Assembly: GCA_965226795.1 (NCBI GenBank)
Contig: CBDDDZ010000005.1
Coordinates: 2,176,001 to 2,240,000, forward strand
Source: Candidatus Latescibacterota bacterium
GTDB lineage: Bacteria; Latescibacterota; UBA2968; GCA-2709665
Reading direction: 5' to 3'
DNA length: 64,000 nt
The notes under the pieces are model-generated. The model had not been told where the DNA came from and made no database searches. It worked only from the letters and a program-made list of their open reading frames with translations. Of this stretch, positions 11,884 through 52,280 are shown one piece after another. Position numbers and translations under genes: made by a program. Within the stretch, counting starts at the first letter, position 1. Each line of letters begins with the position of its first letter.

Positions 11884-13965
11884 TCAATGCGCATTGTCCA
11901 GTACCGCCACGTAGGCGTCGTACAGGCTCTGGACCTTCTCGACGTAATGCACGGGCTGGCCGCCGCGGCAGTAGCCGTATCGCGCCCGTTCGAAGTAAGC
12001 CGGTTGGGAAAGCAGGCGCATCGCCTGCTCCACGTTGCCGAACCAGCGGTTGGGGTCCCATCCCATCTCGCGCGCCAGGCGGCGGGCATCCAGCAGATGT
12101 CCGTAGCCCACGTTGTAGGATGCCAGGGCAAATCGAATCCGCGACTGCGCGGGAATCTCCAGATCGAAGCGCTCGATCAGTTGATGCATGTACTTGGTGC
12201 CGGCGTGGATGCCCTGTTCGGGATCCTCCAGGTCGGTGAATCCCAAATGTAATCCCGTTTTCGGCATCACCTGCATCAGGCCCATTGCGCCCACCCAACT
12301 GACGGCGTCGGGGTTGAATTTAGATTCCTGGTACATCTGCGCGGTAATCAGGCGCCAGTCCTGGCCGTACTGTCGAGAGTACTTCTTGGCAAGGTCGTCG
12401 TATGGCGACAACTGTCCGCTCAATCCGACACGCGTTGAATCTTTGGCCCTGGCAATCCCTCGTTCGTTCTCGAAATACCGCTTCTTCATCATGTTGAAGT
12501 AAAGACCGCCTTTTTCCCGCCTGATGTACTTGTTGAGCGATGCCAGCAGGGCCGGGTTGTCCTTGCGCACGGCCCAACCCAGCATCGTGGACTTGATGCT
12601 GAAGGCGGCTCTGAGCCTGCGGCCGTACGAACGCTCCACGTCGAGCAGGTTGGAATCGGCAATTGTAAGGTCATAGCGTCCGGACTCGACCCCGGCCAGT
12701 ATTTCTTCGGTCTCGATGTCATCCGGCAGTTTGATAATCCGGAGTCCTTCCACGGAATCTTGCAACGCCGTCAGAGTACTATAAAATGAGGAACTGGCGC
12801 GAACGTGGAACGTCCGGCCGGCCAGATCGCTCAGGCTGGCAATCGAATCGTCGTCCGCACGCACCACGACGACCTCTTCCACCTCGTTATACGGCCTCGT
12901 GAAATCCGCCTCCGCCTGCCGTTCGGGGGTTATGGTCATAGCCGCGGCCACCACGTCACCCTTGCCTTCGTTCAAATGCGACAGCAGTTCCGCATGGGAT
13001 TTCGGGATTACGATTTCCAGGCGCAGGCCATGTTCGGAGGCGAACTTTTTCATCAGTTCGTACTCGAACCCCACCTGCAGGCCCCGGTGAATAAAATAGG
13101 TCATCGCGTTGTTGCGCGTGATCATGCGCAGCCGGCCCCGCTCGATCAGCCCCGGGAGATCGTCGGTGAATTCGTGTTGCCGCTCGCGAGAAAAGTGCTG
13201 GGCGAGGAGGAATTCATCCACTTTGGTTTTCAGTTGCGTATCTCCGGGCCGCATCATCATCGCGATCGGCCGATCCATGGCCAGCACCAGCGGCGTCGTC
13301 AAACTGTCATAGTAGCTTGACAGGGCGTACCAAAGATGGGAGTCGGATACGGTGGCCTCGTAGTCGCCCCGGGCGACCCCGTCCAGCAATGCTTCGATGT
13401 TCAGCGTTTCCGGGACGTGGCGGATCCGCAACGATGGAACTTTTTTCTGGAGTTCGATAAGGGTCCGCTGGTAGGAACTGGACTTCCGCACGCTGATCTC
13501 CATACCACCGAGATCCGAGATCGTTTCGGGCTTCTTGCCGCCCGATTTCGTGACCAGGAATTCGTCCACGTACATATATGGGACGGAGAAAGCAGCTCGC
13601 TCCTGGCGTTCGGGCGTGATGGTCAGGCTGGCCAACACAATGTCGCCTTCGCCCTCGAGCAACTTTCCCGTCATTTTGGAGAAATCTCCGACCTGGACGA
13701 GAACCGGGTTCAGATTGAGGGCTTCCGCAAGCTCCCGGGCGATATCGTAAGTGAGTGTCACCTGTTCGCCTTGTCGGGGCATATAGGCGATCGGTTCCAG
13801 CGGGACGATCGCCCTTAACGCGCCCCGCGGCCGCAACTCGGGCAGGTCGCCGGTATATTTGGGCGCGGCAGACGGCTTCCGGACTTTTTCAGGTTGGCTA
13901 CACTGTAGAAGAACGCACAGTGCGGCCACTCCGACGGAAACGTGAACGCTGAATCGGTGCATCAT
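11884..13965 (-). CDS. mltF: Membrane-bound lytic murein transglycosylase F, with tandem substrate-binding domains
   Basis: Two SBP_bac_3-like domains plus an SLT domain (YQESKF, GAMGLMQVMP, ALASYNVGYGH, YGYCRG). Confidence 0.9.
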   Translation of the reverse strand: MMHRFSVHVSVGVAALCVLLQCSQPEKVRKPSAAPKYTGDLPELRPRGALRAIVPLEPIAYMPRQGEQVTLTYDIARELAEALNLNPVLVQVGDFSKMTGKLLEGEGDIVLASLTITPERQERAAFSVPYMYVDEFLVTKSGGKKPETISDLGGMEISVRKSSSYQRTLIELQKKVPSLRIRHVPETLNIEALLDGVARGDYEATVSDSHLWYALSSYYDSLTTPLVLAMDRPIAMMMRPGDTQLKTKVDEFLLAQHFSRERQHEFTDDLPGLIERGRLRMITRNNAMTYFIHRGLQVGFEYELMKKFASEHGLRLEIVIPKSHAELLSHLNEGKGDVVAAAMTITPERQAEADFTRPYNEVEEVVVVRADDDSIASLSDLAGRTFHVRASSSFYSTLTALQDSVEGLRIIKLPDDIETEEILAGVESGRYDLTIADSNLLDVERSYGRRLRAAFSIKSTMLGWAVRKDNPALLASLNKYIRREKGGLYFNMMKKRYFENERGIARAKDSTRVGLSGQLSPYDDLAKKYSRQYGQDWRLITAQMYQESKFNPDAVSWVGAMGLMQVMPKTGLHLGFTDLEDPEQGIHAGTKYMHQLIERFDLEIPAQSRIRFALASYNVGYGHLLDARRLAREMGWDPNRWFGNVEQAMRLLSQPAYFERARYGYCRGGQPVHYVEKVQSLYDAYVAVLDNAH

Positions 13966-18650: not shown

Positions 18651-19144
18651 ATACGTTTTACCCTTCGAAGGCGCAATTTTCAATGTACCAGGTCCGCCGG
18701 CGACGTAAACGCATGCCAACCGCGGAACGGTTACCGGAAGTCCGTGCGGATCAGCGTTGATTGAACCCGGGTCGGATTTGTCCTCTTGCAACAATTCCGG
18801 ATGTTCTCATCATTCCGATTCTTGTTCGGCTCTTCTGGATAGTTTGGGAGTCGATACCATTCGCGGTATGAAATCCCATCGAATTACTGTCGCGCTGATT
18901 TGGGGTTGCACGACATGTCGACGACATCCTGACTTTAGGGACAACCCCTATCGCACAACATAGATGATGATTCGTCTGTCTCCCACAGGAATGTTCGCAT
19001 AAGCGGCTTTTGCATCGGAATCGGATTCCACAGAAATCCCGTTTCTCGCGTTGCCTTCATGGTCGAGTAAGAAAAAGGGATTCCCGCTAAATAGCTTATC
19101 CAGCGGGAATTCGGTCGTATTGGTATTCAGGTAGAGAAACAATG

Positions 19145-19799: not shown

Positions 19800-20058
19800 T
19801 GCATTCTCCCTTGCCGTTTATCTTTCGTCGAGTCTGCAGAGGTCTATCAAAGTGTATTATTGCAAAGCACAATCATCAAGTGATATTCTGAGTACGCAGG
19901 TCCTGGTTTATCTTTGCTTGACGAAAGGAAAACGCAATTTTCGACGTGCCACGTCTGCTGACGACGTGCGCGCTTTCCGACAGCGGAACGGTTGCCGGAC
20001 GTCCGCGCACCCCAGCGACGCAGCACTGGACATTCCGCCTGAGGCCATGGCGGAAGTC

Positions 20059-22221: not shown

Positions 22222-22524
22222 CTATCCCTCAGTCGCAACGAGACCCCAACGCCTGCTCATGCGTTTTAATTCAGGAAGACGTTCAGGCCAATTATGTAAA
22301 GTCGCCGGATCAAAATCGGCGCCATTCGGCCATACCAGAGTATGGACCTCTGGGTCAATCCGAACCTGATTAAATAACGATACATCGCGAAGTGGACCGA
22401 ATAACTCGCCTTTCAATATGGCATGGAAATCGATTATCTGTTCCGTTTCGTCGTCAAAACATACCCGAAGCGTATACGGCGAGAGTATTTCGAAAAACAC
22501 CACGCGAAATATTGGATGGTGCAT
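22222..22524 (-). CDS. DUF2442 domain protein
   Basis: LRVCFDD, GELFGPLRD..FNQV, TLVWPNGADFDP. Confidence 0.88.
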   Translation of the reverse strand: MHHPIFRVVFFEILSPYTLRVCFDDETEQIIDFHAILKGELFGPLRDVSLFNQVRIDPEVHTLVWPNGADFDPATLHNWPERLPELKRMSRRWGLVATEG

Positions 22525-22535
22525 GTCGATCTCCT

Positions 22536-22805
22536 TTATTGAAGAGGATCAATTTTGAAAGGTGCTCGACCCGATTGCAATCTTTCCCAATCTTCCAGTA
22601 ATTCTTCATGGTGCAGTTCTATCCAGGCCTCAATCCGGCGCTGTTGTCGCCGGGGAAGCTGACCGGCAATCATTTCAATTTCATCAATGGCATATACCCC
22701 AACGTCCCCTTGATAATAGGCGTGAAAATGAGGTCGGTGATGAGGCACATAAGGCTCAGCATACATGCGTATTATGATGCCGAAAAATCGGGAAACCTCG
22801 GGCAT
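22536..22805 (-). CDS. DUF4160 domain protein (partner of DUF2442, putative TA pair)
   Basis: MPEVSRFFGIIIRM..HHRPHFHA..ELLEDW..KIDPL. Confidence 0.9.
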   Translation of the reverse strand: MPEVSRFFGIIIRMYAEPYVPHHRPHFHAYYQGDVGVYAIDEIEMIAGQLPRRQQRRIEAWIELHHEELLEDWERLQSGRAPFKIDPLQ

Positions 22806-23128
22806 TTCAAGTCTCGCTGGTACGATTTGGAACAAACGCTACTGGCTTCCAGACATTGCCATACTGCCAACCTGGCTCAGCCGTCATCATCGCGTCCATT
22901 CCACTCCCGGCAAAACTCAATGGAAAGATAACACCCACATTCCCTACCACGGGCGAACTGACAATCGTCACGACATATCAGTTGATGAACTGGCGATGCA
23001 TTCCGTTTTTGATTCGACCCTGTAGAGAATCAGATAGCCGATTCCATTCGCGCTCGGCATACGCATCGAATTACTCTCGGACGGATTCGGTATTGTATGT
23101 CATTCGTAAGCTCCTACGGAATATACGG

Positions 23129-28077: not shown

Positions 28078-28818
28078 TCAGGCGCCTTGAGACTGCTCAC
28101 AAAACACGCCGGTACCGAACTCGACGAAGGATCCCACCTCGGTTTTGAGCAATTCAGCTTCACCTGGCGTCTCCCTGCCCTGGTAGGAATCCACTGCCGC
28201 GTCGATCAGCGGTTTCCATTCAGGAAACCGTTCACAAGTCCAGGCGCCACTGGAAAACTTCGACACCGCCACGTTCCGTTCCTGTACGCTGTACATGATC
28301 CGGCACATATTGAGGACACAATAGTCCGGGTATCGCAGGTTCTGCTCGATGAACTTCAACTCGTGCTTGAGAGCGGTCAAAATTTCGTCCCAGGATGGCG
28401 CCGGGAAGATCTCCTTTGGGGGCGGACCGTAAAGCGTAATATAGCGTCCGGCCCTGACGTGCGCGCAATGCAATGCCCACGCTTCGTCCCGCATATCGGG
28501 CTGCAACTGGTGGACGGGCGGACGCGTCTCCAGGGCATCCTCGCGCAGTACGAGATAGGCATCCAATTCACCGCCCAAAGGCGGAAAACGGCCCGAAAGA
28601 TCTCTCTGCAATTGAAGAATTGCGTCTTTTTCCCGGCCATTCAGCCGTCCTTCCAGGATCACGTGACAGTCGATATCCTGTACAACTCCCGAGTCCGGAA
28701 ATACCGATGCGCCATACATGTAAATGCCATGCAAATTCGTATCGAGGATATCCGCAAGACCCCTGACGAAGGCCTGGCAGACCTCGCGGACAGATGCGGG
28801 TAATTGGGCGAATTTCAT
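28078..28818 (-). CDS. Aminoglycoside adenylyltransferase-like nucleotidyltransferase (DUF4111)
   Basis: GIYMYGA..DID, LYGPPP, YCVLNMCR, VSK..G.W. Confidence 0.85.
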   Translation of the reverse strand: MKFAQLPASVREVCQAFVRGLADILDTNLHGIYMYGASVFPDSGVVQDIDCHVILEGRLNGREKDAILQLQRDLSGRFPPLGGELDAYLVLREDALETRPPVHQLQPDMRDEAWALHCAHVRAGRYITLYGPPPKEIFPAPSWDEILTALKHELKFIEQNLRYPDYCVLNMCRIMYSVQERNVAVSKFSSGAWTCERFPEWKPLIDAAVDSYQGRETPGEAELLKTEVGSFVEFGTGVFCEQSQGA

Positions 28819-28871
28819 AGGGCACACGGGCGTGATGACGAGCCCGTCGGAATACCTCTGGCAGCATCCGG

Positions 28872-28959
28872 TTCTAAGACGCCTGACGCTGCCTTCCGCC
28901 GGACGCAACGACGGGCGTTGAAATATAGGACGGCGTAGTGGCAACCGGTTGTTAACAGC
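28872..28959 (-). repeat. Degenerate attC-like site
   Basis: Inverse core GTTAACAGC (28951-28959) matches the cassette-start core at 29823-29831; the other arm is decayed. Confidence 0.5.
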
Positions 28960-29046
28960 TGTTGCGCCCCAATGGGTGCGGCTGGGTCAAGTCAGCCCTA
29001 TGGAGCGAATTCGGTCACTGTAGTGCCGCTCAAAAGCAGTTCGAAT

Positions 29047-29799
29047 TCAAGATATTCCCCACGCCTCTCCTCGTTTTTCCATCGAGTCCACGACGACGGA
29101 GCCGAAGCCAAAGGCCACATAGTGGCGAAGGTCTGAAGTATCCGCCTCGAAGAACCCTGAGTCCCTCAGACGCGAAAACAATCGAAAGGCTGGCCAGACT
29201 GGATTGTGAAGCAACACGCCGACCAGTATCTCTTTGCTTCCCAGGAACGCTTGTTCAAAATCGATGAACTTGTATACGACGCCATCCCGCAGGAACAGAT
29301 TCCCCGGATTCCAATCCAGTTTGATCAACAGCTCGTCCGAAAGCTCAACTTTCGCAACCTGCTCGCTGAGTTCGTGGAAAAGCGGAGCGCAATTGTCGCC
29401 ATTGGATGCCAGCCGAGACAAACTTTCATGTAGCGAGGCGAGAGTCTCATCCGCCCCCCGCCCTTCGAAATACTGGTCTTTCAAGTCCGAACAAGGTGCT
29501 GACGCGTCGAATAAATGTGCGATCTGATCGACGTAACTATCGGTCAGCATGTTCAAATCGTCAGTGGTCAGATCTACGTCGTGCATCAGGTCGCCGGTCA
29601 CGTGCTCGACTACGATGAAGGCGTCCGGACTCGAATCCAATAAGGTCGGAATCAGCTGAGACCTACCATAGTGCCGGTAAAAACCGACCTCACGCCTGTA
29701 CCTGCCGGCTGGGTCGCCATTCTGATTGTAGGTCTTCCTGACTGAACCGTCAGGCAGATAGTCGATCTGGCTCTTGCGGCACGGACCTGGCGGCTTCAT
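29047..29799 (-). CDS. Kinase/phosphotransferase-like cassette protein
   Basis: VRK, RE..FY, DWNPGN, FIDFEQ; lies between attC-like cores. Confidence 0.7.
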   Translation of the reverse strand: MKPPGPCRKSQIDYLPDGSVRKTYNQNGDPAGRYRREVGFYRHYGRSQLIPTLLDSSPDAFIVVEHVTGDLMHDVDLTTDDLNMLTDSYVDQIAHLFDASAPCSDLKDQYFEGRGADETLASLHESLSRLASNGDNCAPLFHELSEQVAKVELSDELLIKLDWNPGNLFLRDGVVYKFIDFEQAFLGSKEILVGVLLHNPVWPAFRLFSRLRDSGFFEADTSDLRHYVAFGFGSVVVDSMEKRGEAWGIS

Positions 29800-29824
29800 T
29801 GACTGCCCTCGCAAGCGCAATTGC

Positions 29825-29910
29825 TGTTAACTTTTTCGCCGCGCTCGAACCTCACATCGGTTGGGCGAAGGCGCGCATACACCCAGGCAGCGGGCACGGG
29901 CACGTTTTGC
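29825..29910 (-). repeat. attC-like site
   Basis: TAAC..GCCGCGCTCGAACC..GGTTGGGCGAAGG..CGGGCACGG..GTT; same family as 35678-35758. Confidence 0.7.
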
Positions 29911-29935
29911 AGTCGAGCTCCATCGCCTCCTTGAC

Positions 29936-30868
29936 TCAGAAGTGTGCGATGGGCTTCATCAGAACCGTCCACAGACCCGACATTCCGAAAAGTCCGGCTT
30001 CATCAGGTTGAACGGTCATGGGCTGAAACTCAGAAATCTCGAAATGGTGTTGCATAATACGCCTCAGGCTATCTTCGAAGTAGCCAATTCCCGGCGGTAT
30101 TTTCCCTTTTCGTATACCTCCCGGTCCTCCACGGGTCGCCAGACATAGCACCCTACACCCCGCCAAATCGCCCAGGATTCCTTCACGGTTATCGGCGATT
30201 TGGACAGCACGATCTTCCGTCAAGTCGAGAACGGGACGTGAACAAACAATCCCCGCTTCCGCGAGTGCCTCCCACTTGAAGATTTCAAAACCTGCTGTCT
30301 CGACTTCCTGAACCAGACTCTCTGGCAAACCCCAGTAACGCGTTGCGATCCCATTCTCTATTTTGCATCGGGTCACAGGATCAAACGGATAATCTGCCTC
30401 CTTTGGCTCACCGCATTTTGACATGACGATGAATAACCCCTGAGACTTCAGTACACGATGAACATTCTTCAAGAACGCAATGCGGTCTTCGCCGATGATA
30501 CAATGCAGGCAAAGGGCATCTATGATCACGTCGAAAAACCCATCCTGATAGGGTAAATCGAGGACGTTCCCAACTCGGAAATCCGCTCTCAAATTCTGTT
30601 CCTCGCGCTTCTCCTCTGCCCAGGCGATCGCCGTTGGAGAGATATCGATTCCATAGGTTTGAAAGCCCTTCTCTGAAAGTAGCAGAGAAAGATCGCCGGC
30701 GCCACATCCTAACTCAAGCAAAGTTGCCGATTCCAACTGCTGCGAGACATTGGTCACTTTCGCAAACGAATCCTGATAGAGTTCCGGTGTATTATATCCT
30801 GAAGCACCCTGTTGCCTGAGTTTTTGGAATTTCCTCTCAAAAACCCCTGGATAGTCAGTCTTCAACAT
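29936..30868 (-). CDS. Class I SAM-dependent methyltransferase, probably with a chimeric C-terminus
   Basis: LLELGCGAG, GIDISP, FDVIID..CLHCI; later segments resemble other methyltransferases. Confidence 0.8.
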   Translation of the reverse strand: MLKTDYPGVFERKFQKLRQQGASGYNTPELYQDSFAKVTNVSQQLESATLLELGCGAGDLSLLLSEKGFQTYGIDISPTAIAWAEEKREEQNLRADFRVGNVLDLPYQDGFFDVIIDALCLHCIIGEDRIAFLKNVHRVLKSQGLFIVMSKCGEPKEADYPFDPVTRCKIENGIATRYWGLPESLVQEVETAGFEIFKWEALAEAGIVCSRPVLDLTEDRAVQIADNREGILGDLAGCRVLCLATRGGPGGIRKGKIPPGIGYFEDSLRRIMQHHFEISEFQPMTVQPDEAGLFGMSGLWTVLMKPIAHF

Positions 30869-30955
30869 TTGTTGCTCGCCTCGGAGAAATACGTGAGGGA
30901 TAGCGGGGCCATTGCCTCTTCATATCCTAACTACAAATCCCAAATCTGCCGTGGC

Positions 30956-31022
30956 ACATAACGTTTCACCGTTGGCGAACCTTACGCAGCTTGGTTGAAA
31001 GAGGTAAAGCCGCGGGTTATAT
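30956..31022 (-). repeat. attC site
   Basis: Minus strand ATATAAC (holds the GNAT stop codon) ... GTTATGT; shared CGAACC..GGTTG core. Confidence 0.75.
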
Positions 31023-31547
31023 CGGCATTCGTAAGGAAGAAAGGTCACGCCTGAAGCGAATTTGACGTCCTTCATCTCGAACCCCACCATCACGGCGCCA
31101 CCCCATGGCCTCGTAGAAAGCGATTCCTCGCTCGTAACCTTCTACGCTCCACAGTATCGCCTTATCGTAGCCGTCTATAACCAGAAAGCGTAAAGCGACA
31201 GACGCCAATGCCTTGCCAACGCCTGTGCGCCAGTACGACGGATCGACTGCAATGGTATCAAGTTCACCCAGATGAACATCTTCCGGATCTCGGCTGGGTC
31301 CGATGCCGACGAACCCTACAGTAGAACCCCTACGCTCGGCTACCCACCAACGATGTGGGACAGCCTGACCAAGATCATGTCGCCAGCGCTCAGCAAGGGA
31401 TGGCGTCACAGTTCTATCGGACTGCGACAGCAGTGCGCCAAATCCGGCATTCCACGAATCGACATAAATCCGTGCTGCAATATCGGCATCAGCGGCCGTA
31501 GCCGATCGGATCGTTGGTGGTAATTCTCGTGTTCTGTTCGGTCTCAT
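31017..31547 (-). CDS. GNAT acetyltransferase (cassette gene)
   Basis: IRSAT..D..IARIYVDSW, VDPSYWRTGVGKAL, FYEAMGW. Confidence 0.9.
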   Translation of the reverse strand: MRPNRTRELPPTIRSATAADADIAARIYVDSWNAGFGALLSQSDRTVTPSLAERWRHDLGQAVPHRWWVAERRGSTVGFVGIGPSRDPEDVHLGELDTIAVDPSYWRTGVGKALASVALRFLVIDGYDKAILWSVEGYERGIAFYEAMGWRRDGGVRDEGRQIRFRRDLSSLRMPI

Positions 31548-31577
31548 CTGATTGCTATTGTTTCTTCATCCAATGTC

Positions 31578-31640
31578 ACATTACGTCCCGGAGTGCCCGA
31601 ACCTGCGCAGCAGGTTTGTCTGGAGCGAAGGCGGGCAATC
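31578..31640 (-). repeat. Degenerate attC-like site
   Basis: ACATTACGT..GTGCCCGAACCTGCGCAGCAGGTT..GCGAAGG matches the family; core mutated. Confidence 0.55.
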
Positions 31641-31715
31641 AATGATATTTGAAATAAAGAATCTTCTGTATCGGATGTTCCCTCGAACGTCTGATTTACG
31701 TGGCGAATGAGAGCG

Positions 31716-32282
31716 TTATTTTCGCGCAGTCATTCGGTCGAATGCGTTGGGACGACGCCGGGATTTCCAAGCATCGATCAGAGCGTCCACGTTGTCCTGG
31801 TTCGGCTGCAGCGAGTCAATTTCCAGATCGTAATCCGAGAAACCGTGGACTACTTGATGGTCCATTCGAGCTTCTCCGGCTCGTCGATTTCCCCTCTCGC
31901 GCTCCCTTAGCTCCAACTCAGAAGGCGGACAGTGTATGCCAACAAAAAACACGTCCAAGCCAGCGAGTAATTTTACTAGATCGGACATCCACACTTCATT
32001 TTCAATAATGTGCTCGACGATGAGATTGTTGGCCGCATCCGCTAAAACTGGCAGACAGCGATGAAACCCATCGAAGACAGCGGGTCTCATGGCTGACCAA
32101 TCAATTTCACCGCTTCGAATTCGTTCCATCGGCAGGGCGTTTGAATCGCGAAGGTGGTCAAACGAAAAGTGCCAGAATGGGATTGGTAGCGATTGTTGTA
32201 GCTGGCGGGCAAGCGTCGACTTCCCGGAACTCGACGCGCCGTTGATGAGGATGATTTTCCCTGGTTCACGAGTGATATCCAT
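31716..32282 (-). CDS. Chloramphenicol phosphotransferase (CPT)-like kinase
   Basis: ILINGASSSGKSTLA, GIHCP..EL..RE..RGNR..GEA, YDLEIDS. Confidence 0.85.
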   Translation of the reverse strand: MDITREPGKIILINGASSSGKSTLARQLQQSLPIPFWHFSFDHLRDSNALPMERIRSGEIDWSAMRPAVFDGFHRCLPVLADAANNLIVEHIIENEVWMSDLVKLLAGLDVFFVGIHCPPSELELRERERGNRRAGEARMDHQVVHGFSDYDLEIDSLQPNQDNVDALIDAWKSRRRPNAFDRMTARK

Positions 32283-32432
32283 GACGTGTCTATTGACCTA
32301 ATCACCAGCCCTGCAAAGAGAGATCGCCGTACTAACTCAGACTGATGAGCGAGTTCAGTTTTACCACGTTCTCATTACATATTGGCACAGAGGGGATGCG
32401 TTCAAGCGATTCCTCGAACAAAAACTCGAAAA

Positions 32433-33050
32433 GGTGGAGCAGACATTCTTGTCTGCTCACATGCATCAAACCGAAACCTCAGAATCTTGAATCCGGGCAC
32501 GCCACACCTCGCCGGCGTCTCCCCCACCGGAAAAGGGACGGCGCCATTGATTGGATCACCTTTTGCCTCGCTGACGCGATCACCGGGACAAACGCCGCGC
32601 CTTTCAGGATGCGCGTAAGCTGTGGCTCAAGCGGCACCGCGAACCGTGGACGGACGCCGAGTGGAAATGCATCTGTCACACGTGCGCCCACACTCTGAGG
32701 AAGCCGGCAGGCTGACGAAGCCTCCGTCCGAATTCGTTAGCGAAGGCTTCTGCCACATTTACAATGGAATGGACGGGAGATTCTTCGACTGCGCTCAGAA
32801 TGACAGGGCGGGGGATCATCAGAACTGTCATGCTGAGGAAACCGTCAGGCTGACGAAGCATCTCCTGCTCGCGTCGGATGATGCCCGGGCGTTTATCTTT
32901 GGACCCGGCCTGCCAGGCAGCACATCCGTTCCCTCTCATGCGGCGGCATCCATCAGCCTTCAGCAGACAGCAAGACAATGAAAAGGGCAGACAGGAATGT
33001 CTGCCCCACCTTCACACACACTCCCTCGACGGCTCGACAAGCCATTGTGC
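32433..33050. repeat. REP-like palindrome cluster
   Basis: GTGGAGCAGACATTCTTGTCTGCTC and its inverse GGGCAGACAGGAATGTCTGCCCCAC; GATTCTTCGACTGCGCTCAGAATGACA / TGTCATGCTGAG..GAAGCATCTC. Confidence 0.65.
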
Positions 33051-33097
33051 GGGGGTGGAGATGGTCGATTCGCGAATAAAGCAGCCTGAGCCATGGT

Positions 33098-33496
33098 CTA
33101 CACGAATACTGAGGGCGAGACGCCAAATCGCCTGGACAAAGCACGTATCTGTCGGATGTTCAGCTCTCGCTTACCGCTCAGAATCTCCGAAACCACCCCT
33201 TGCGAACCCACCTCCGGCAAATCCGACTGAGTCAAATCATGCTCCTCCATGAGAAGTCGGAGTGGATCTGCACCCTCCAAGTCGGGCATGGAATGGTTTT
33301 GTTCTTCCCACGCGTGGACAACGGTGCCCAGCGTATCGAGCAGGGAATAAAGCGGATGCCGCTCATCAGTGCCCACTTCATCGATCAGGCTGTTGAGCCG
33401 CTTCAGGGCCAAGTCGTATTCCCGCTCGTTCCGGATCTTGAGTAACGCACTCACTTGCGTCCAGGATCGCTGAAGTTGGGTAGCAATAATACTCAT
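33098..33496 (-). CDS. higA: HigA-type antitoxin (HTH)
   Basis: IRNEREYD.AL..L..L, LRLLMEEHDLTQSDL..GSQGVVSEILSGKRELN..I..LS.RF.V. Confidence 0.88.
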   Translation of the reverse strand: MSIIATQLQRSWTQVSALLKIRNEREYDLALKRLNSLIDEVGTDERHPLYSLLDTLGTVVHAWEEQNHSMPDLEGADPLRLLMEEHDLTQSDLPEVGSQGVVSEILSGKRELNIRQIRALSRRFGVSPSVFV

Positions 33497-33645
33497 ATCC
33501 TCCATCCTCCACGGTCATAGGCCTGGTGTGTAAGTACATCACGGATGTATACTTTGCCCCGATTGAAGTGAATAGAGACAATCAGGCGGTACTTGTTGCC
33601 GGCGATGTTAAACACGACGAATTCTCCGACTTTATCGGCCGAAGG
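33493..33645 (-). pseudogene. higB: HigB toxin, 5'-truncated
   Basis: PSADKVGEFVVFNIAGNKYRLIVSIHFNRGKVYIRDVLTHQAYDRGGW; ATGA overlap with higA; N-terminal half missing. Confidence 0.85.
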
Positions 33646-33802
33646 CGGGCCGCCGTACGCCAAGGCGCCCCTTTGACAACCCTTCGACAGGCTCAGGACA
33701 AGGCTCAGGATAAACTCCGCGGCGCAGCGCCCGTGAATCGCGTGTTAAGCGCTGCTACGGCGCGGGGTGGTTATGGTCTTCCTCGCCCGGCCGAGAGCAC
33801 GC

Positions 33803-34186
33803 TCAAATATCTATCCGATAGTCCAACCTGGCTTCGTCCCCTGTCATGCCGCGGAAACCCCAATTACCGGCCGGAGTCTCGAAGCGCGTGATCTCCAGGT
33901 CAATCGGTGCAATCCCCAAATTCTCCCCTATTCGCTCAAACAAAAGGTGGATCAGTTTCTTCCTGACTTCTGCTGAACGTCCCTCCATTAGAGAGATCTC
34001 TATCACCGTGTACGCATCCGTACGTCCCTCCGGATAGTAGAAGTCTTCAGCATCCATTGGGATGAAGCGATGTGCTCGTTTATCGGTCGGAAATGAAAGG
34101 GCGTCAACCATACATGTGTTGATCACATCGGATAGCTTCGCCTTTATCGGATCCAGATTTTGCCTCAGGCCGTAGACTCGAATCAT
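33803..34186 (-). CDS. Tautomerase family protein (cassette gene)
   Basis: DKRAHRF..FYYPEGRTDAYTVIEI..GRS..KK..DLEI..ETP..NWGFRG. Confidence 0.88.
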   Translation of the reverse strand: MIRVYGLRQNLDPIKAKLSDVINTCMVDALSFPTDKRAHRFIPMDAEDFYYPEGRTDAYTVIEISLMEGRSAEVRKKLIHLLFERIGENLGIAPIDLEITRFETPAGNWGFRGMTGDEARLDYRIDI

Positions 34187-34263
34187 GCGGGTTCTCCGTT
34201 CCGGCGAATATGACGGCCTAATTCGCGACGCCTGCGTGTTTGGTATATCGATGCCGCACTTGC

Positions 34264-34348
34264 ACATAACGTTCCTGGCACCCACGAACTTGCCGGAGGC
34301 AAGTTGGGCGAGGGGTGTATACCCCGAGCCGCAGACGGCTTGTTAGGC
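34264..34348 (-). repeat. attC site
   Basis: Minus strand GCCTAAC (holds the GNAT stop codon) ... GTTATGT; branched internal hairpins. Confidence 0.85.
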
Positions 34349-34891
34349 GTAGCCGCCCCTTACGTCTTCGCGCGTGATTCGATAGGCCAGTCTATCCCTG
34401 TCCTCCCACAAGAAGCGTTTCCAGAAACGGAATTCGCACTTCTCTGATAGGCCAACCGACTTTTGATTTCCAGGCATAATGACGCCCACTATTTCCGCCA
34501 GTGCGAGGTTGTCAAAGCCATACTGCACAACAGATCTCATCACTTCAGTTCCGTATCCCTTGCGCCACTCAGATCTTCTTAGGGCACAACCTATGTTGAC
34601 TTCGGGCATATTGGAGATGTAATGAAGGCCGCAGAAGCCAATCAGATCACCAGACTCCTTCTCAATGACACCCCAGTCTCCAAACCCATGCGTATCCCAA
34701 TGTTCGTTGATCTCTACGATCCTCCCTCTCGTCTGCTGGACGTCCTTGTCCGGCCCAGGCCACCAGCGTTTCATAACATCTGGATCTCCTGTCGTCCTGT
34801 GGAGAGCGGGAGCGTCTGCTTCAGTCAGGTGTCGTAAGAGGAGTCGCTCTGTCCCAATAGTGGGCTTGTTCACACTGTTAACTCTATTCAA
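34343..34891 (-). CDS. GNAT acetyltransferase, RimJ/RimL family (cassette gene)
   Basis: TERLLLR, LIGFCGL, WRKGYGTE, N.KS..L.EK. Confidence 0.9.
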   Translation of the reverse strand: MNRVNSVNKPTIGTERLLLRHLTEADAPALHRTTGDPDVMKRWWPGPDKDVQQTRGRIVEINEHWDTHGFGDWGVIEKESGDLIGFCGLHYISNMPEVNIGCALRRSEWRKGYGTEVMRSVVQYGFDNLALAEIVGVIMPGNQKSVGLSEKCEFRFWKRFLWEDRDRLAYRITREDVRGGYA

Positions 34892-34909
34892 TTGAAGGTG
34901 GGAGGTTTC

Positions 34910-35001
34910 GCCTAACGTTTCGCCGGTTTGCGAACCCGCAAAGCGGGTTGCCGAAGGCCAAGGCGCCAGCGGCGGCGCAGCGCAATACCGCGCTGTTAGC
35001 G
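34910..35001 (-). repeat. attC site
   Basis: Minus strand CGCTAAC ... GTTAGGC; inner arms CGGTTTGCG / CGCAATACCG pair with one extrahelical base. Confidence 0.88.
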
Positions 35002-35038
35002 GACGTCGTATCTCGGTCGTGCCTTACTATGCAAACTA

Positions 35039-35647
35039 CTATTTCGACAGAAGCCTTTGCCAGCGATGACCTTCAGGATGCAGAACTTCCAACCCAGTCT
35101 CCAACCATCTCTTCGCCTCGGCGGACATCAGCGGCAGGCACGCTTCAAAGTCTAGTTCATCTTTCGAACGAGAATTCTTAGCTTTGTAAAGAAGTTGGAC
35201 CTCAATCCGTATACAGGGAACACGTCTATATGAAACGATCAAGTCTCCTCGTTGCCCGCCAATCAGTTTGCTGCGCCTACTGAACCACCTGTCGCCTTCG
35301 CTTTCAGTCAACATGATCTGAAGCTGCCACGCCTGTGCGCTGGTATGGCCCCATATGTCATGTATCCCGTAAGGCAAGTACTCTGATTCTGCCCATGGTC
35401 GCAATGAGCCAGGTGGATCAGCCGCGTACAGATGCCAATCTGAGAGCCAGCGCTGTACGTCGAGTTGTTGATCCCGGTACACTATGACGTCAATATCACC
35501 GTGGTCCCGGACGCGCTTTCCCACGAACTGCTCAACCGCATAGCCACCGGCGAGTCCCCACATGAAAGGAGCGTTGGCGAACAATTGCGTCAATTCCTGG
35601 ACTGATAAGGGTTGCCATTGGCTGTAGGGAATCCCAGGAGTGGTCAT
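35039..35647 (-). CDS. Nucleotidyltransferase, aminoglycoside-2''-adenylyltransferase-like (cassette gene)
   Basis: WGLAGGYAV..RDHGDIDV, QLLYKAK..RSKDELDF. Confidence 0.85.
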   Translation of the reverse strand: MTTPGIPYSQWQPLSVQELTQLFANAPFMWGLAGGYAVEQFVGKRVRDHGDIDVIVYRDQQLDVQRWLSDWHLYAADPPGSLRPWAESEYLPYGIHDIWGHTSAQAWQLQIMLTESEGDRWFSRRSKLIGGQRGDLIVSYRRVPCIRIEVQLLYKAKNSRSKDELDFEACLPLMSAEAKRWLETGLEVLHPEGHRWQRLLSK

Positions 35648-35677
35648 GCAGTTCGCATCCTGCGCTTAAACGATGTC

Positions 35678-35758
35678 CGCTAACGTTCTGGCCGTGCCCG
35701 AACCGCGAAGCGGTTGCGCGAAGGGCGCAGCCCGTAGCCGGACACGGACGTGTTATAG
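35678..35758 (-). repeat. attC site
   Basis: Minus strand CTATAAC ... GTTAGCG; arms CCGTGCCCG / CGGACACGG; hairpin AACCGCGAAGCGGTT. Confidence 0.85.
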
Positions 35759-35827
35759 GAAGTGCCAAACCTGTTTCCTTGGCACAGTAATCTCAATTCC
35801 GCGCACATCCTCGCCAAACAGCTCACC

Positions 35828-36511
35828 TCAATCCTCTTTACTGCTTTCCCCTTGCACTTCTACCAGCAAACGACCGAGATCAGGATACTCTCTGTGCGCG
35901 AACTGTCGAATCTCTTCCAATGGAGGAATAGACGTGGGCTTCTCCTTTGGAAGTGCCTTCAAGGCCGACGGAATACGTTCAGGGAAGGTTGCTAGGTGAA
36001 AGCCTCTTCGATTCTGCGCGAAATCAGTGAGAAGTTTACTGTCCTTAAACCTGCAATGTACCGGAAAGAGATACATGGCATCAGCCCGAAATGGACCGAA
36101 AATCTGTGCAACTGCTCCATCTGGAGGTTCTACCGCCGATGAGATTGAAAAAAGCCGCTGTAGGACTTCCTGTCCATGTTCACCTTGTACGTAGACGCGT
36201 CTGAGTGGGATCTCAGAACTATCTTGCGAGATGGCTGTGACGACCAAGAGCCCATATCCATTCAAACGGTGAAACTCCTTACTATCCTTTGGAAACGCAA
36301 TGTCGTGAAACCCAACTCGCGCAGCCACAGCTCCATATTTCTGGTAACGTAACGCGGACTCTGCAATGATTTTGTCAATCCGCGCACTACTCACAGGCTC
36401 AGAAGAGTAGCCAGTCCGCTCTCGAACGTGGAAATGGTCTTCAGCCCCTGTCCAAGCAAAGTCAGGAATATTCACCATCACAACTGCCAGTATTGCCAAT
36501 GATCGTGTCAT
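35828..36511 (-). CDS. Hypothetical exported protein (cassette gene)
   Basis: 227-aa ORF with hydrophobic N-terminus, followed by an attC site. Confidence 0.7.
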   Translation of the reverse strand: MTRSLAILAVVMVNIPDFAWTGAEDHFHVRERTGYSSEPVSSARIDKIIAESALRYQKYGAVAARVGFHDIAFPKDSKEFHRLNGYGLLVVTAISQDSSEIPLRRVYVQGEHGQEVLQRLFSISSAVEPPDGAVAQIFGPFRADAMYLFPVHCRFKDSKLLTDFAQNRRGFHLATFPERIPSALKALPKEKPTSIPPLEEIRQFAHREYPDLGRLLVEVQGESSKED

Positions 36512-36651
36512 CAGATGTACCCTACCTTATCGTCGAGTAACCTAACAGCCCGTTGAAAAAGTCCATCCGGGCTGCGTCCGGCCCTTGTGGCCGAATTACT
36601 GCGTTGCGCTCCCTCCCCGAATCCCCGATTCGACGCGGTCGCGCGCCTAGT

Positions 36652-38531
36652 CCTTAAACAAGCGTGATGGTGAGATTTTTCTGGTCCAAGAGACCGGAAA
36701 GGCCTACCGTTGTTGGAGATAGATGGATTGCGCTAGAAATCATCACTCCAACGCAGGAGACCTTTCCGGTGAAAAGAATATCGGTTGATGACAGCCGCAG
36801 GAACAGTGCTCGTCGCAAACGCAAAGTGGCCGCCCGCCACGGTCGAGCGGGCATTGGCAGGCGCAGCCCCGGCCCATGTTCAGCCCTGGCAAAGTGCACT
36901 ACGAGGTGGGCGCCTACACCGACGCGATGAGTTACGGAGGCATCGGCGCCGTGCATCGCCTGGTCACCAAGCTGGGACTGCCCAAGCGCATCGACGCGTC
37001 GCTGTCCCTGTTGAAGGTGCATCTGCCCTATCATGAGTCGGACCACGTGCTCAACATCGCTTACAACGTGTTGTGCGGCGGCACGCGCCTGGAGGATATC
37101 GAGCGTTTGCGACATGACGGGGCCTACATGAATGCCCTGGGTGCTCAGTTGATTCCCGATCCGACCACGGCGGGTGACTTTTGCCGACGCTTCTCGGAAC
37201 GGGACATCGTCGAACTGATGGCGTGCATCAACGCGGTGCGATCCTCCTTGTGGGCATCGCGTGGCCGCAAATTGCTTTGTGACATCACCTATATCGACGT
37301 GGACGGCACAAACGTGCCGACGTATGGAAAGCGCAAGAGGGGTATGGACATCTCTTACCAGGGCATCTGGGGCTACCATCCGCTGGTGATCTCACTGGCC
37401 AACACGAAGGAAGTGCTCTTCCTGGTCAACCGACCGGGGAATGTGCCCAGCCACACCGGTGCGGCACCCTGGATCGACGCGGCCTTGGCGCTGGTGCAGC
37501 CCCACGCCAAGCGCCTCTGTGTACGTGGCGACACCGACTTTTCCTTGACCCGACATTTTGATCGATGGGCCAAAAGCGTCGACTTCATCTTCGGGATGGA
37601 CGCCAACGCGACGATGCGTTCCCGTGCTGAGGCCCTCGACGAGGCACAATGGCAGCCCCTGCAACGCAAACCCCGTTATCACACCGTGACCGACCAGAAG
37701 CGGAAGCGCAATCAGCCCCACGAGAAACAGCGCATCGTCCGCAAACGGGCCTACGCCAACCTGGTCCTCAACCACGAACACGTGGCCGAGTTCAACTACC
37801 AACCCACGCGCTGTAAACGTGTGTATCGCGTCGTGGTCCTGCGCAAGAACATCAGTAAAATGAAGGGCGACCTTGTCCTGTTCGACGAATGCCGTTATTT
37901 CTTCTATATCACGACACGCACGGACGTAAGCCCCGCCGAGATCGTCGCCTGTGCCAACCAACGCTGCGATCAGGAGAACGTCATCGAGCAACTCAAAAAC
38001 GGCGTCAACGCCTTGCGCGTGCCCCTGTATGACCTGGTCAGCAACTGGGCCTACATGGTCATCGCCGCCCTGGCCTGGAACCTCAAATCCTGGTTTGCCA
38101 TGATGATGCACCGACACCTGGACCGACAGCAGTACGTCCGCATGGAATTCCGGCGCTTCATCCACAGCATCATCTTGATTCCCTGCCACGTCATCCAACG
38201 CGCGCACACCACCACGTTGCGCCTCATCGGCTATCAACCCACCCTCGATCGCCTCTTCAGCACCTGGCGTATCATTGAACGCACCGGATTTGGATAACAC
38301 CAATGCAGCACGACCGATGACACACACACGCCGCGCCATCCCCACACCCCTCAACGGACCGGTGTGTCCACCACGCGCCTGACCGCCACTTCGGATACTC
38401 AATTCACGATAGCGACCACGACAAACACCGCCCCAAAGATCATCCAAAACGCCAATTCCATATAAATCGACACCAACGCCTCACCACAAACACAGATCGA
38501 TGTGCCGCAAACGAAACTCGCTTATTTTAGG
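36652..38531 (+). mobile_element. IS1380 family insertion sequence (1880 bp)
   Basis: TIRs CCTTAAACAAGCG / CGCTTATTTTAGG; CCTAGT duplicated on both sides. Confidence 0.88.
36876..38297 (+). CDS. IS1380 family transposase (5' end possibly frameshifted from GTG near 36768)
   Basis: YHESDHV, PDPTTAGDF, IDVDGT, GYHPL, RGDTDF, RCDQENVIEQLK. Confidence 0.92.
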   Translation: MFSPGKVHYEVGAYTDAMSYGGIGAVHRLVTKLGLPKRIDASLSLLKVHLPYHESDHVLNIAYNVLCGGTRLEDIERLRHDGAYMNALGAQLIPDPTTAGDFCRRFSERDIVELMACINAVRSSLWASRGRKLLCDITYIDVDGTNVPTYGKRKRGMDISYQGIWGYHPLVISLANTKEVLFLVNRPGNVPSHTGAAPWIDAALALVQPHAKRLCVRGDTDFSLTRHFDRWAKSVDFIFGMDANATMRSRAEALDEAQWQPLQRKPRYHTVTDQKRKRNQPHEKQRIVRKRAYANLVLNHEHVAEFNYQPTRCKRVYRVVVLRKNISKMKGDLVLFDECRYFFYITTRTDVSPAEIVACANQRCDQENVIEQLKNGVNALRVPLYDLVSNWAYMVIAALAWNLKSWFAMMMHRHLDRQQYVRMEFRRFIHSIILIPCHVIQRAHTTTLRLIGYQPTLDRLFSTWRIIERTGFG

Positions 38532-38946
38532 CCTAGTCTTCGGCCACAATGACTCGGCCTCGCCTGCAGAGCGACTTTTTCAACGGACTGCTAAACAGTT
38601 GGAGTGAGGAACAGGATCTATCGATTCGTGCTTCCGCTTATTTCGACTGGTACGAGGATAACAAAGGATAAAGCGATAGAAGGTTTTGTGAGCGATTGCC
38701 ACGGTGGTTGGACTCTGCCTTTGCGCCAGTTTTGCATAACTACGGCATTGGCGAACATGCACGGTAATGCGGGCCAGATCGGAGAATTCCCGGACATTCG
38801 GGAACATCACACATTGAAGCTTGAATCCCGAACATTTTCAATGATGCTTTCTTAAGTGCCATTATCTTAACCACATCGCCACCAATTTAAACCTGGCTCA
38901 ACGCTTCCAACATCATTCGGCACTCCTGCGCCCTTTAGACTGCTCT

Positions 38947-39351
38947 CTAATTTTTATGGGGAAATTGTCTCATTAATATAGGCACAGAGGGAAAGTCTAT
39001 CTGGGCTGTTCTTAAATTTCTTTTTCCGTTGTATGTGACAAAACGAGGAAGAATAGCCTGTACTCCACACAAAACATGATAGTGATTACTCAGATGTGAT
39101 AATTTTTCTAGCGTTTCGATCTCTCCCTTTGCTCCCGCATAAAATGAATTTCCTTTGTTTCTTTCGAATTGTTGGATCTTTCTTCTTTTTCTCCACTTTC
39201 TTATTCCTGCAAAAATCCCGTCATCTTTTGCATTGAGTTCATTTCTTAGTTTTCGATGTGCGTTTTCTATATCTTCGAATGTTTTCACAGGTTTAGGGTA
39301 CAAGTCCAAGAGCTGTTTTTCACTATCTGGCCTGCCATAGATTATCGCCAT
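38947..39351 (-). pseudogene. NERD domain protein, truncated
   Basis: GAKGE..L..LS..Y.V..AQIDF then an abrupt end; markedly AT-rich. Confidence 0.65.
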
Positions 39352-39582
39352 TGGACACACTCCAAGATTACAGAGTTCTCATAATCTAACCTGCGATTCG
39401 CACTCAGCCATCCCATCATTTGCACCATCCGTTCTGTTCGCGTTTATTTTTCTCTCCGCCGCAAAACTCCCGATACCACCCGTTGACAATCACCCGGCCA
39501 CACGACACGATGGGAGATTGCCGATAATGCCGCGCTCTCATTGCCCGCTAAAAGATCGCCAGTCCCCGAAATTGCGGCGTAT

Positions 39583-49096: not shown

Positions 49097-52280
<3,184 letters not shown>

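Follow-up and report, generated by a model that had tools for sequence, protein, structure and literature searches.

A decayed cassette sub-array in a Latescibacterota genome probably belongs to an integron-like system run by a recombinase without the I2 region

The closest described counterparts of the system considered here are integrons, with their integrase IntI and their attC sites. In the parts of Escudero et al. (PMC7790495) available to us, the I2 helix of IntI docks the extrahelical bases of the site, blocks second strand exchange and is held to be the innovation that enabled the use of folded single-stranded sites. Nivina et al. (PMC7439510), in the portions at hand, give the R box, the extrahelical bases, the spacer and the terminal structure as the features of attC. 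Integron surveys count only I2-bearing enzymes, judging from the accessible sections of Cury et al. (PMC4889954); there, a few recombinases beside attC sites were judged not to be IntI, and the tree of 21 such proteins may include members of the I2-less class described below. According to excerpts of Neron et al. (10.1101/2022.02.28.482270), integrons are very rare in Firmicutes and Bacteroidetes, and the available part of Ghaly et al. reports that archaeal IntIs carry the insertion. A literature search, with supplements and most subscription papers outside it, found no description of an I2-less integron-like class. Here we analysed a stretch of 64,000 nucleotides from a Candidatus Latescibacterota bacterium (the window; G000:C5:2176001-2240000, where G000 is the source genome, C5 its contig, and other G numbers are relatives). 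A first-pass annotation of the window had seen in it an integron-type gene cassette array, assembled by IntI, with no integrase in view. We consider it likely that this array is an orphaned, old sub-array, and that an IntI-related recombinase lacking I2 runs the integron-like system to which it belongs.

To place the array in its genome, a covariance model of the junction sites was built from 22 complete sites of G000 and used to scan that genome, 150 of ~5,300 first-look candidates being scored. All 30 model hits, eight of them outside the training set, lay on one strand of C5:2205825-2359068. The sites form one 153-kb block and are tied to gene ends, and are not palindromes scattered over the genome. 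Most genes in the block lie on the minus strand and resemble cassette genes, all its sites face one way, and its end is marked by a tyrosine recombinase that lies 120 kb outside the window. The window array is the decayed far end of this 153-kb array. Genes of the window outside the limits first drawn are also cassettes in relatives, where their homologues lie between model hits: that of 28082-28825 in G016 and that of 22286-22807 in G015, twice. A profile search picked up one half site of this family away from the block (G000:C3:286123-286197, minus strand).

The first-pass statement that no tyrosine recombinase is visible in the window was borne out: G000 has four PF00589 matches, none of them in the window. 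The recombinase that closes the block (PF00589 plus PF13495; the platform recombinase) lies 880 bp past the last site, is co-oriented with the cassettes and is frameshifted, and a 3' fragment of its gene is found inside the block. Its best solved relative by sequence is VchIntIA (PDB 2A3V, E 5e-41), and 2A3V is also the best solved relative by fold of an intact relative in G017. Residues 153-181 of the recombinase face residues 170-240 of IntI, so that ~42 residues, the I2 region, are missing. The IntI model TIGR02249 matched the protein in two pieces, 14-174 and 235-315, leaving 175-234 unmatched, and reached 205 bits, under the cut-off of 265; no IntI over this cut-off was found in G000. The model NF040815 gave 211 bits (cut-off 220). 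A quick tree of 96 proteins placed the recombinase in a 19-row group (support 94) outside a 13-row IntI clade (100), with proteins borne on insertion sequences (IS) in a separate 23-row group (95); the order among the three groups is open. The family is large, as 7,916 of 8,000 scored candidates matched at E<=1e-30. Two other candidate enzymes of G000 were rejected: a 346-residue frame at C5:2103311, with no site within 100 kb, and an XerC-like gene with no site near. We infer that the platform recombinase is the catalyst of the system.

A small domain is encoded in the frame upstream of the recombinase and matches HARP (PF07443) weakly (E 0.027, below the Pfam cut-off). The frame break parts this front domain from the rest of the protein, and contigs of run X14, which may be the source sample, show no gap there. 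With its recombinase gene broken in this way, the G000 array has probably frozen or retains only weak activity. In two G017 relatives, front domain and recombinase stand in one frame. A HARP match at E<=0.05 was found in 34 of 53 aligned members, the best at 22 bits against a Pfam cut-off of 25. The front domain is predicted to adopt a beta-beta-alpha-beta-beta-alpha-beta fold. Its best Foldseek E value was 0.033, and fold comparison (VIA) gave Z 7.6 for UvsW (root-mean-square deviation 2.8, 70 aligned) and 4.0 for SMARCAL1 HARP (1.9, 48 aligned). Top or near-top among its fold matches are domains of the HARP/MotCF type, namely SMARCAL1 HARP, the N-terminal part of T4 UvsW and the damage-recognition domain of XPB, with all scores below significance; unlike these, the front domain is fused to a recombinase. 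It is probably HARP-like. A HARP domain is not required in every relative.

Read on the bottom strand, a site consists of AAC, seven nucleotides, a 9-bp stem ending in CG, a hairpin AAC..GTT, one or two variable hairpins, the stem partner, four nucleotides and GTT (hence a 7x4 loop). The branch that the first pass had seen as shared between sites, CGAAC..GTTG..CGAAGG, is conserved. For comparison with attC, a template of the classical attC geometry was written as our own script. The 31 complete sites of G000 had their best stem at offset 2-3 in 22 cases and without a bulge in 21, and none fitted the classical template of L box and extrahelical base at >=6/7, so that on this template the label attC is not supported in its classical sense. 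A related-site set was made of 116 model hits at 13 loci in 7 relatives, drawn from 199 after G000, G013 and some loci had been set aside. The 100 of these with exact cores, all picked by a model that favours the 7x4 shape, had offsets 2-4 in 93 cases, no bulge in 86 and a classical fit (6/7) in one. Near true IntI genes, classical-type sites (6.5-7/7) were present at 5 of 10 loci, against none of the four loci with an I2-less enzyme. G017 holds both kinds: classical sites near its own IntI, and the 7x4 family behind two intact I2-less enzymes. The build of the block's sites differs from that of classical attC.

The inner stem keeps its pairing as its sequence changes. In the alignment, 87% of stem cells were paired, compared to 30-41% in slid controls, and 57 cells were compensatory compared to 23.8 in shuffles, a count reached by 0 of 500 shuffles. 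Covariation of the inner stem at a fixed offset from the core suggests that the substrate is a folded single strand, presumably the bottom one. The two ends of a cassette pair over ~16 bp with a gap at outer position 11, which matches in none of 26 cassettes of G000 and in two of 56 from relatives and is T.G in 39 of 47 well-matched ones, the neighbouring positions matching; in classical pairs position 11 matches in 6 of 7. By eye, a Bacteroidota pair at locus L054 has the same position-11 pattern. Long outer pairing was rejected as a unique mark of the family, being present in classical cassettes. Longer, AT-rich sites with offset 3 were seen downstream of related recombinases in Bacteroidota (L054:13454-15076, L039:13030-13162, L039:20600-20731 and L066:20751-20881). 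An offset-3 scan of 12 named loci gave plausible sites in five Bacteroidota loci (L033, L039, L054, L058 and L066) and none in six, and the site model had no match on 23 named loci. A first covariance model (R1) was set aside for a mis-registered hairpin, a family-blind site detector applied to 79 named loci was too noisy for counting, minimum-energy folding of single sites was unreliable, and a direct-repeat search did not recover the junction-site family.

The window also holds an attI-like remnant that was absent from the first-pass annotation. It lies at 38737..38873 on the minus strand, with its crossover core GTTA at 38740-38737, is 81% identical over 116 nt to the copy beside the recombinase, at C5:2359816-2359950, and has no integrase frame behind it. 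The block has four attI copies (C5:2214737, 2285123, 2341910 and 2359816), each followed by another cassette. The array of the window therefore has an insertion site to itself and forms a sub-array. Six integrase-adjacent copies (from G000, G013, G008 and G015) are alike as far as GTTA, past which they change with the first cassette, and in several genomes the insertion point lies ~130 bp behind the I2-less gene. Loose contig ends fall at the attI core in runs X1, X16 and X17, from three studies. Multiple attI copies per array were also seen in G013, G008 and G014, some carrying a 3' piece of the recombinase gene. For a Pc promoter, the interval 38600-39500 offered one promoter-like site, on the opposite strand, where 1.6 are expected by chance.

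As first reported, the core that opens a cassette exactly matches the inverse core that closes it for the nucleotidyltransferase (10 bp), the RimJ-type GNAT (8 bp) and the kinase-like gene (9 bp); the first 6 bp of the last are palindromic, so only the extension beyond them counts. Of seven window pairs tested, the end-match was intact in three, partial in one (the tautomerase) and poor in three. Over the whole block (36 hand-placed sites, 33 adjacent pairs <8 kb apart), a cassette start matched its own inverse core at 3.88 of 6 positions beyond GTTA, compared to 2.36 +/- 0.18 in 20,000 permutations (maximum 3.24) and to 2.42 between the two ends of one site. Only one of five complete window sites has the strict RYYYAAC consensus; AAC/GTT triplets and cassette-specific complementary cores are present.

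Cassette order differs among relatives, and the unit that moves is a cassette with the TAAC/GTTA core at its borders. The window's nucleotidyltransferase cassette (35039..35647) has other neighbours in G010, and homology breaks at both TAAC cores. G000 has a partial second copy of it (C5:2330660-2331017) with the same start, after another site. The G008 equivalent of the site at 30956 joins a different cassette at the TAAC core, and G013 has the middle of the block in common with G000 but other cassettes beside the recombinase. A single contig of run X1 links 34917 with 38737, an arrangement expected if the RimJ cassette stood first at attI. No circular-cassette joint was seen in contigs, which drop rare forms, so that this result carries no weight. 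The sub-array of the window is decayed, with an IS insertion, half sites and, in relatives (G013 and G008), deletions that end away from cores.

Relatives were counted over 41 genomes, whose kin are not independent of one another. Model hits were found in 29 of the 41, attI matches in 19 and IntI over cut-off in two. Set against a close recombinase homologue (E<=1e-40) in ten genomes, the site and IntI counts suggest that orphaned arrays are common. In G016, the 5' end of the recombinase and an apparent attI are duplicated 5.5 kb away (L023:7800-8100 and 12456-13580). G020 has multiple copies of a SAM_4 integrase with a transposase-like gene in or beside arrays (L107:14958-15746, L108:5065-5853 and L109:13646-14434). 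The six 314-residue SAM_4 integrases of G020 were rejected as platforms, the three examined preceding a transposase-like gene and having no HARP match. In G017, such a pair of genes stands directly beside true intI genes (L110 and L125). We take the SAM_4-carrying elements to be IS91-like and presume a preference for GTTC targets, which would explain their insertion in sites.

Compared with described systems, the block most resembles sedentary chromosomal integrons. Its enzyme has SAM_4 front and catalytic domains that are most similar to those of VchIntIA; the insertion site is fixed beside the gene; single-gene cassettes face one way, cross over at AAC/GTT, end in stop codons within the inverse core and decay with distance; the cargo includes toxin-antitoxin, GNAT and transferase genes; and some sedentary integrons also have an integrase co-oriented with the cassettes. 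Unlike theirs, the enzyme here is without I2 and in many members bears an extra, probably HARP-like domain. The sites have a 7x4 rather than a 6x5 loop, a mostly unbulged 9-bp stem in place of an L box with an extrahelical base, a conserved branch and T.G at outer position 11, and there are several attI copies per block. XerA, XerC and XerD are likewise recombinases without I2, and NF040815 came near its cut-off; unlike Xer, the platform recombinase matches IntI better among solved structures, stands at a cassette array and occurs in a genome with a separate XerC-like gene. As the available parts of PMC4889954 and 10.1101/2022.02.28.482270 describe clusters of attC sites lacking integrases (CALIN), the window shares with them a local cluster of cassettes that has decayed and has no integrase nearer than 120 kb. 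It departs from them in its non-classical sites, in keeping an attI-like site and in lying within a block that ends at a recombinase. The first-pass reading of a CALIN or decaying integron can thus be kept for the local decay, the recombination-built cassettes and the lack of an integrase beside them, and is not supported as regards a classical CALIN. Nor is the assignment to IntI, the same site family running to an I2-less recombinase. With both I2 and the extrahelical-base L box failing, we file the system neither as an IntI integron nor as a classical CALIN.

On the reading that an I2-less recombinase runs the block, the enzyme would insert circular cassettes at attI and excise them between sites, cutting in the AAC/GTT core. 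The 7x4 loop, the branch and T.G at position 11 may serve as landmarks in place of extrahelical bases, and the front domain, dispensable in some members, may bind the branch. We lean, with some reserve, towards a wider view in which this is a second, widespread integron class, its I2-less enzyme acting on folded single strands with a 7x4 loop, a branched top and T.G, often helped by a HARP-type fork-binding domain. Several observations weigh against these proposals. Two of five covariation measures were no higher than in shuffles (179/500 and 192/500), the structure was drawn from the same sequences on which it was tested, and the model that selected the relatives' sites has the 7x4 shape as its basis. 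Long outer matches are unspecific, seven classical cassette pairs matching over 7-13 bp. HARP scores stay under the Pfam cut-off, and the fold matches to UvsW, XPB and SMARCAL1 HARP are weak. Only 10 of the 41 genomes have the close homologue, and some of these homologues are IS-borne. G016 combines 44 sites with an I2-less enzyme that has no HARP match and is divergent from the cassettes, and in G020, 68 sites are accompanied only by a 3' enzyme fragment and IS-borne relatives. The queries used found no front-domain enzyme that was both intact and full-length in the source genus (frameshifted in G000, 5'-interrupted in G013, in pieces in G008 and G015), yet first cassettes differ among strains. 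The attI joint of run X1 is a single contig with a 35-letter side, and its intervening letters are not known.

Three other explanations were weighed. The enzyme could act on double-stranded DNA in the manner of Xer or Cre, through the 16-bp outer arms, with the hairpins serving RNA structure or directionality. It lacks the helix that, in the available text of PMC7790495, enables IntI to recombine single strands. The sites have long outer arms, their top strand folds about as well as their bottom strand, and two of three rejoined sites have lowest-energy folds other than the inner structure proposed here. We regard this as unlikely, as the inner stem stays paired through sequence change at its fixed offset from the core and all cassettes face one way. 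Neighbours moreover share only the 4-bp core, which from tyrosine-recombinase chemistry would not be enough overlap for strands to be exchanged a second time.

A classical CALIN, with the true IntI lost or acting from elsewhere and the I2-less recombinase a bystander, would account for the AAC/GTT cores, the inverse-core stops and a cassette content like that of integrons. The genome is 95.9% complete, so that an intI gene could be missing, and IntI is present in the family, in G017. That same genome is where two site types sort with two enzymes, and IntI over cut-off is absent from G000 and found in two of 41 genomes, against 29 genomes with sites. Together with the failure of the classical template and the place of the insertion point behind the I2-less gene, this makes a classical CALIN very unlikely. 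Least likely in our estimate is that another recombinase moves the cassettes, either XerC/D or SAM_4 integrases on the elements that we take to be IS91-like. Many relatives do keep arrays without an intact platform enzyme, and in G020 at least three of the six IS-borne SAM_4 integrases lie in or beside arrays; set against this, none of the four PF00589 matches of G000 is an IS-borne integrase of this type, and the attI-like site keeps a fixed place at the 3' end of the platform gene.

An attI, mobile cassettes and covarying hairpins without I2 or extrahelical bases put the view that I2 is essential to a direct test. If the platform recombinase is indeed the catalyst, cassette shuffling would be independent of I2, and the class would be invisible to searches for the IntI insertion or for classical attC. 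Some of the scarcity of integrons reported for Firmicutes and Bacteroidetes could be explained in this way, and the class would fill some of the 'integron-free' phyla; pools of cassettes whose cargo is resistance-like may be being missed. The window itself is a decayed example, and its value lies in the evidence it gives on how such arrays age.

In the window, all six palindromic sites of the first-pass annotation were recovered on one strand between single minus-strand genes, as were two remnants; in what follows, genes are on the minus strand and sites and site remnants on the plus strand. Strong model scores were reached by four of the six sites (53-78 bits), all four members of the training set. 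Closest to the attI-like remnant, an IS1380-family element (36546..38593, plus strand; NF033539, 298 bits; multi-copy) sits in the leader of the first cassette, at a site that is empty in G013 and G008. The right boundary first drawn, 36545, is the end of this element, with no junction site there; 36541-36547 was rejected as a further site, since what stands there is the end of IS1380 and a short duplication of the target. About 20 copies of the element's left 107 nt (36546-36652) occur without a transposase, resembling a miniature inverted-repeat transposable element. The first cassette has a hypothetical gene (35828..36511), an open reading frame with no family match. The site at 35678..35758 (78 bits), with a 7x4 loop and an unbulged stem paired at 8/9, separates it from an aminoglycoside-adenylyltransferase-like nucleotidyltransferase gene (35039..35647; PF10706, E 4.5e-8). 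The next site, 34910..35001 (71 bits), has a 7x4 loop and a 9-bp stem with one bulged T. It is followed by a RimJ/RimL-type GNAT gene (34343..34891; PF13302, E 9.2e-33), whose TAA stop (34343-45) lies within the inverse core of the site at 34264..34348 (55 bits; inner stem poorly paired), as the first pass had noted for both GNAT genes.

Beyond a tautomerase gene (33803..34186; PF14552, E 4.3e-22) with its partial end-match, a right-half site remnant spans 33640..33750, with an inserted repeat and its inverse core at 33744-33750. A short repeat, which we take to be REP-like (repetitive extragenic palindrome), was seen in the variable arm of several sites (window 33670-33715; C5 2282621, 2295092, 2314934, 2318227 and 2323240). 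A helix-turn-helix antitoxin-like gene (33098-33505; PF01381) and a frame with the 3' remnant of its partner (33496-33642) together fill 33098..33642; a 90% copy of the pair lies between two sites at C5:2343249-2343803. We presume it to be HigAB, for which no NCBIfam match was obtained. A chloramphenicol-phosphotransferase-like kinase gene (31716..32282; PF07931, E 2e-42) precedes a half site with left arm and branch only (31578..31640; 20 bits). A GNAT acetyltransferase gene follows (31017..31547; PF00583, E 9.3e-15), its TAA stop (31017-19) held in the inverse core of a shortened site (30956..31022; 13 bits, E 0.53). The next cassette encodes an S-adenosylmethionine-dependent methyltransferase (29936..30868; PF08241, E 1.3e-22) and borders a complete site with a 7x4 loop, an unbulged stem (7.5/9) and a mutated inverse core (29825..29910; 53 bits). 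The gene at 29047..29799 is an open reading frame without a Pfam, NCBIfam or PADLOC match, which we call kinase-like from what we take to be a phosphotransferase motif. Its cassette is closed by an inverse-core remnant (28951..28966), which continues beyond its 9-bp match to the cassette start at 29831 with a 2-nt mismatch and five more matches. Leftmost lies a nucleotidyltransferase gene with an AadA_C domain (28078..28818; PF13427, E 6.8e-12), an old cassette that has lost its own site; its 77% homologue in G016 sits between two model hits.

Some further features of the window lie apart from the cassettes. Searched at the gathering threshold, Rfam placed no family on the junction sites, its window matches being to a group II intron only. 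The intron domains (50337-51066, minus strand; RF02003, 92 bits; RF00029, 48.5 bits) split an ABC-permease-like gene, and no reverse-transcriptase-sized open reading frame was seen there. A 270-nt non-coding repeat at 32395-32667 has at least eight copies of 74-87% identity on four contigs. A 90-nt direct repeat (18667-18756 and 19928-20017) has 74% identity between copies 1261 nt apart. Part of the stretch is also contained in sponge metagenomes.

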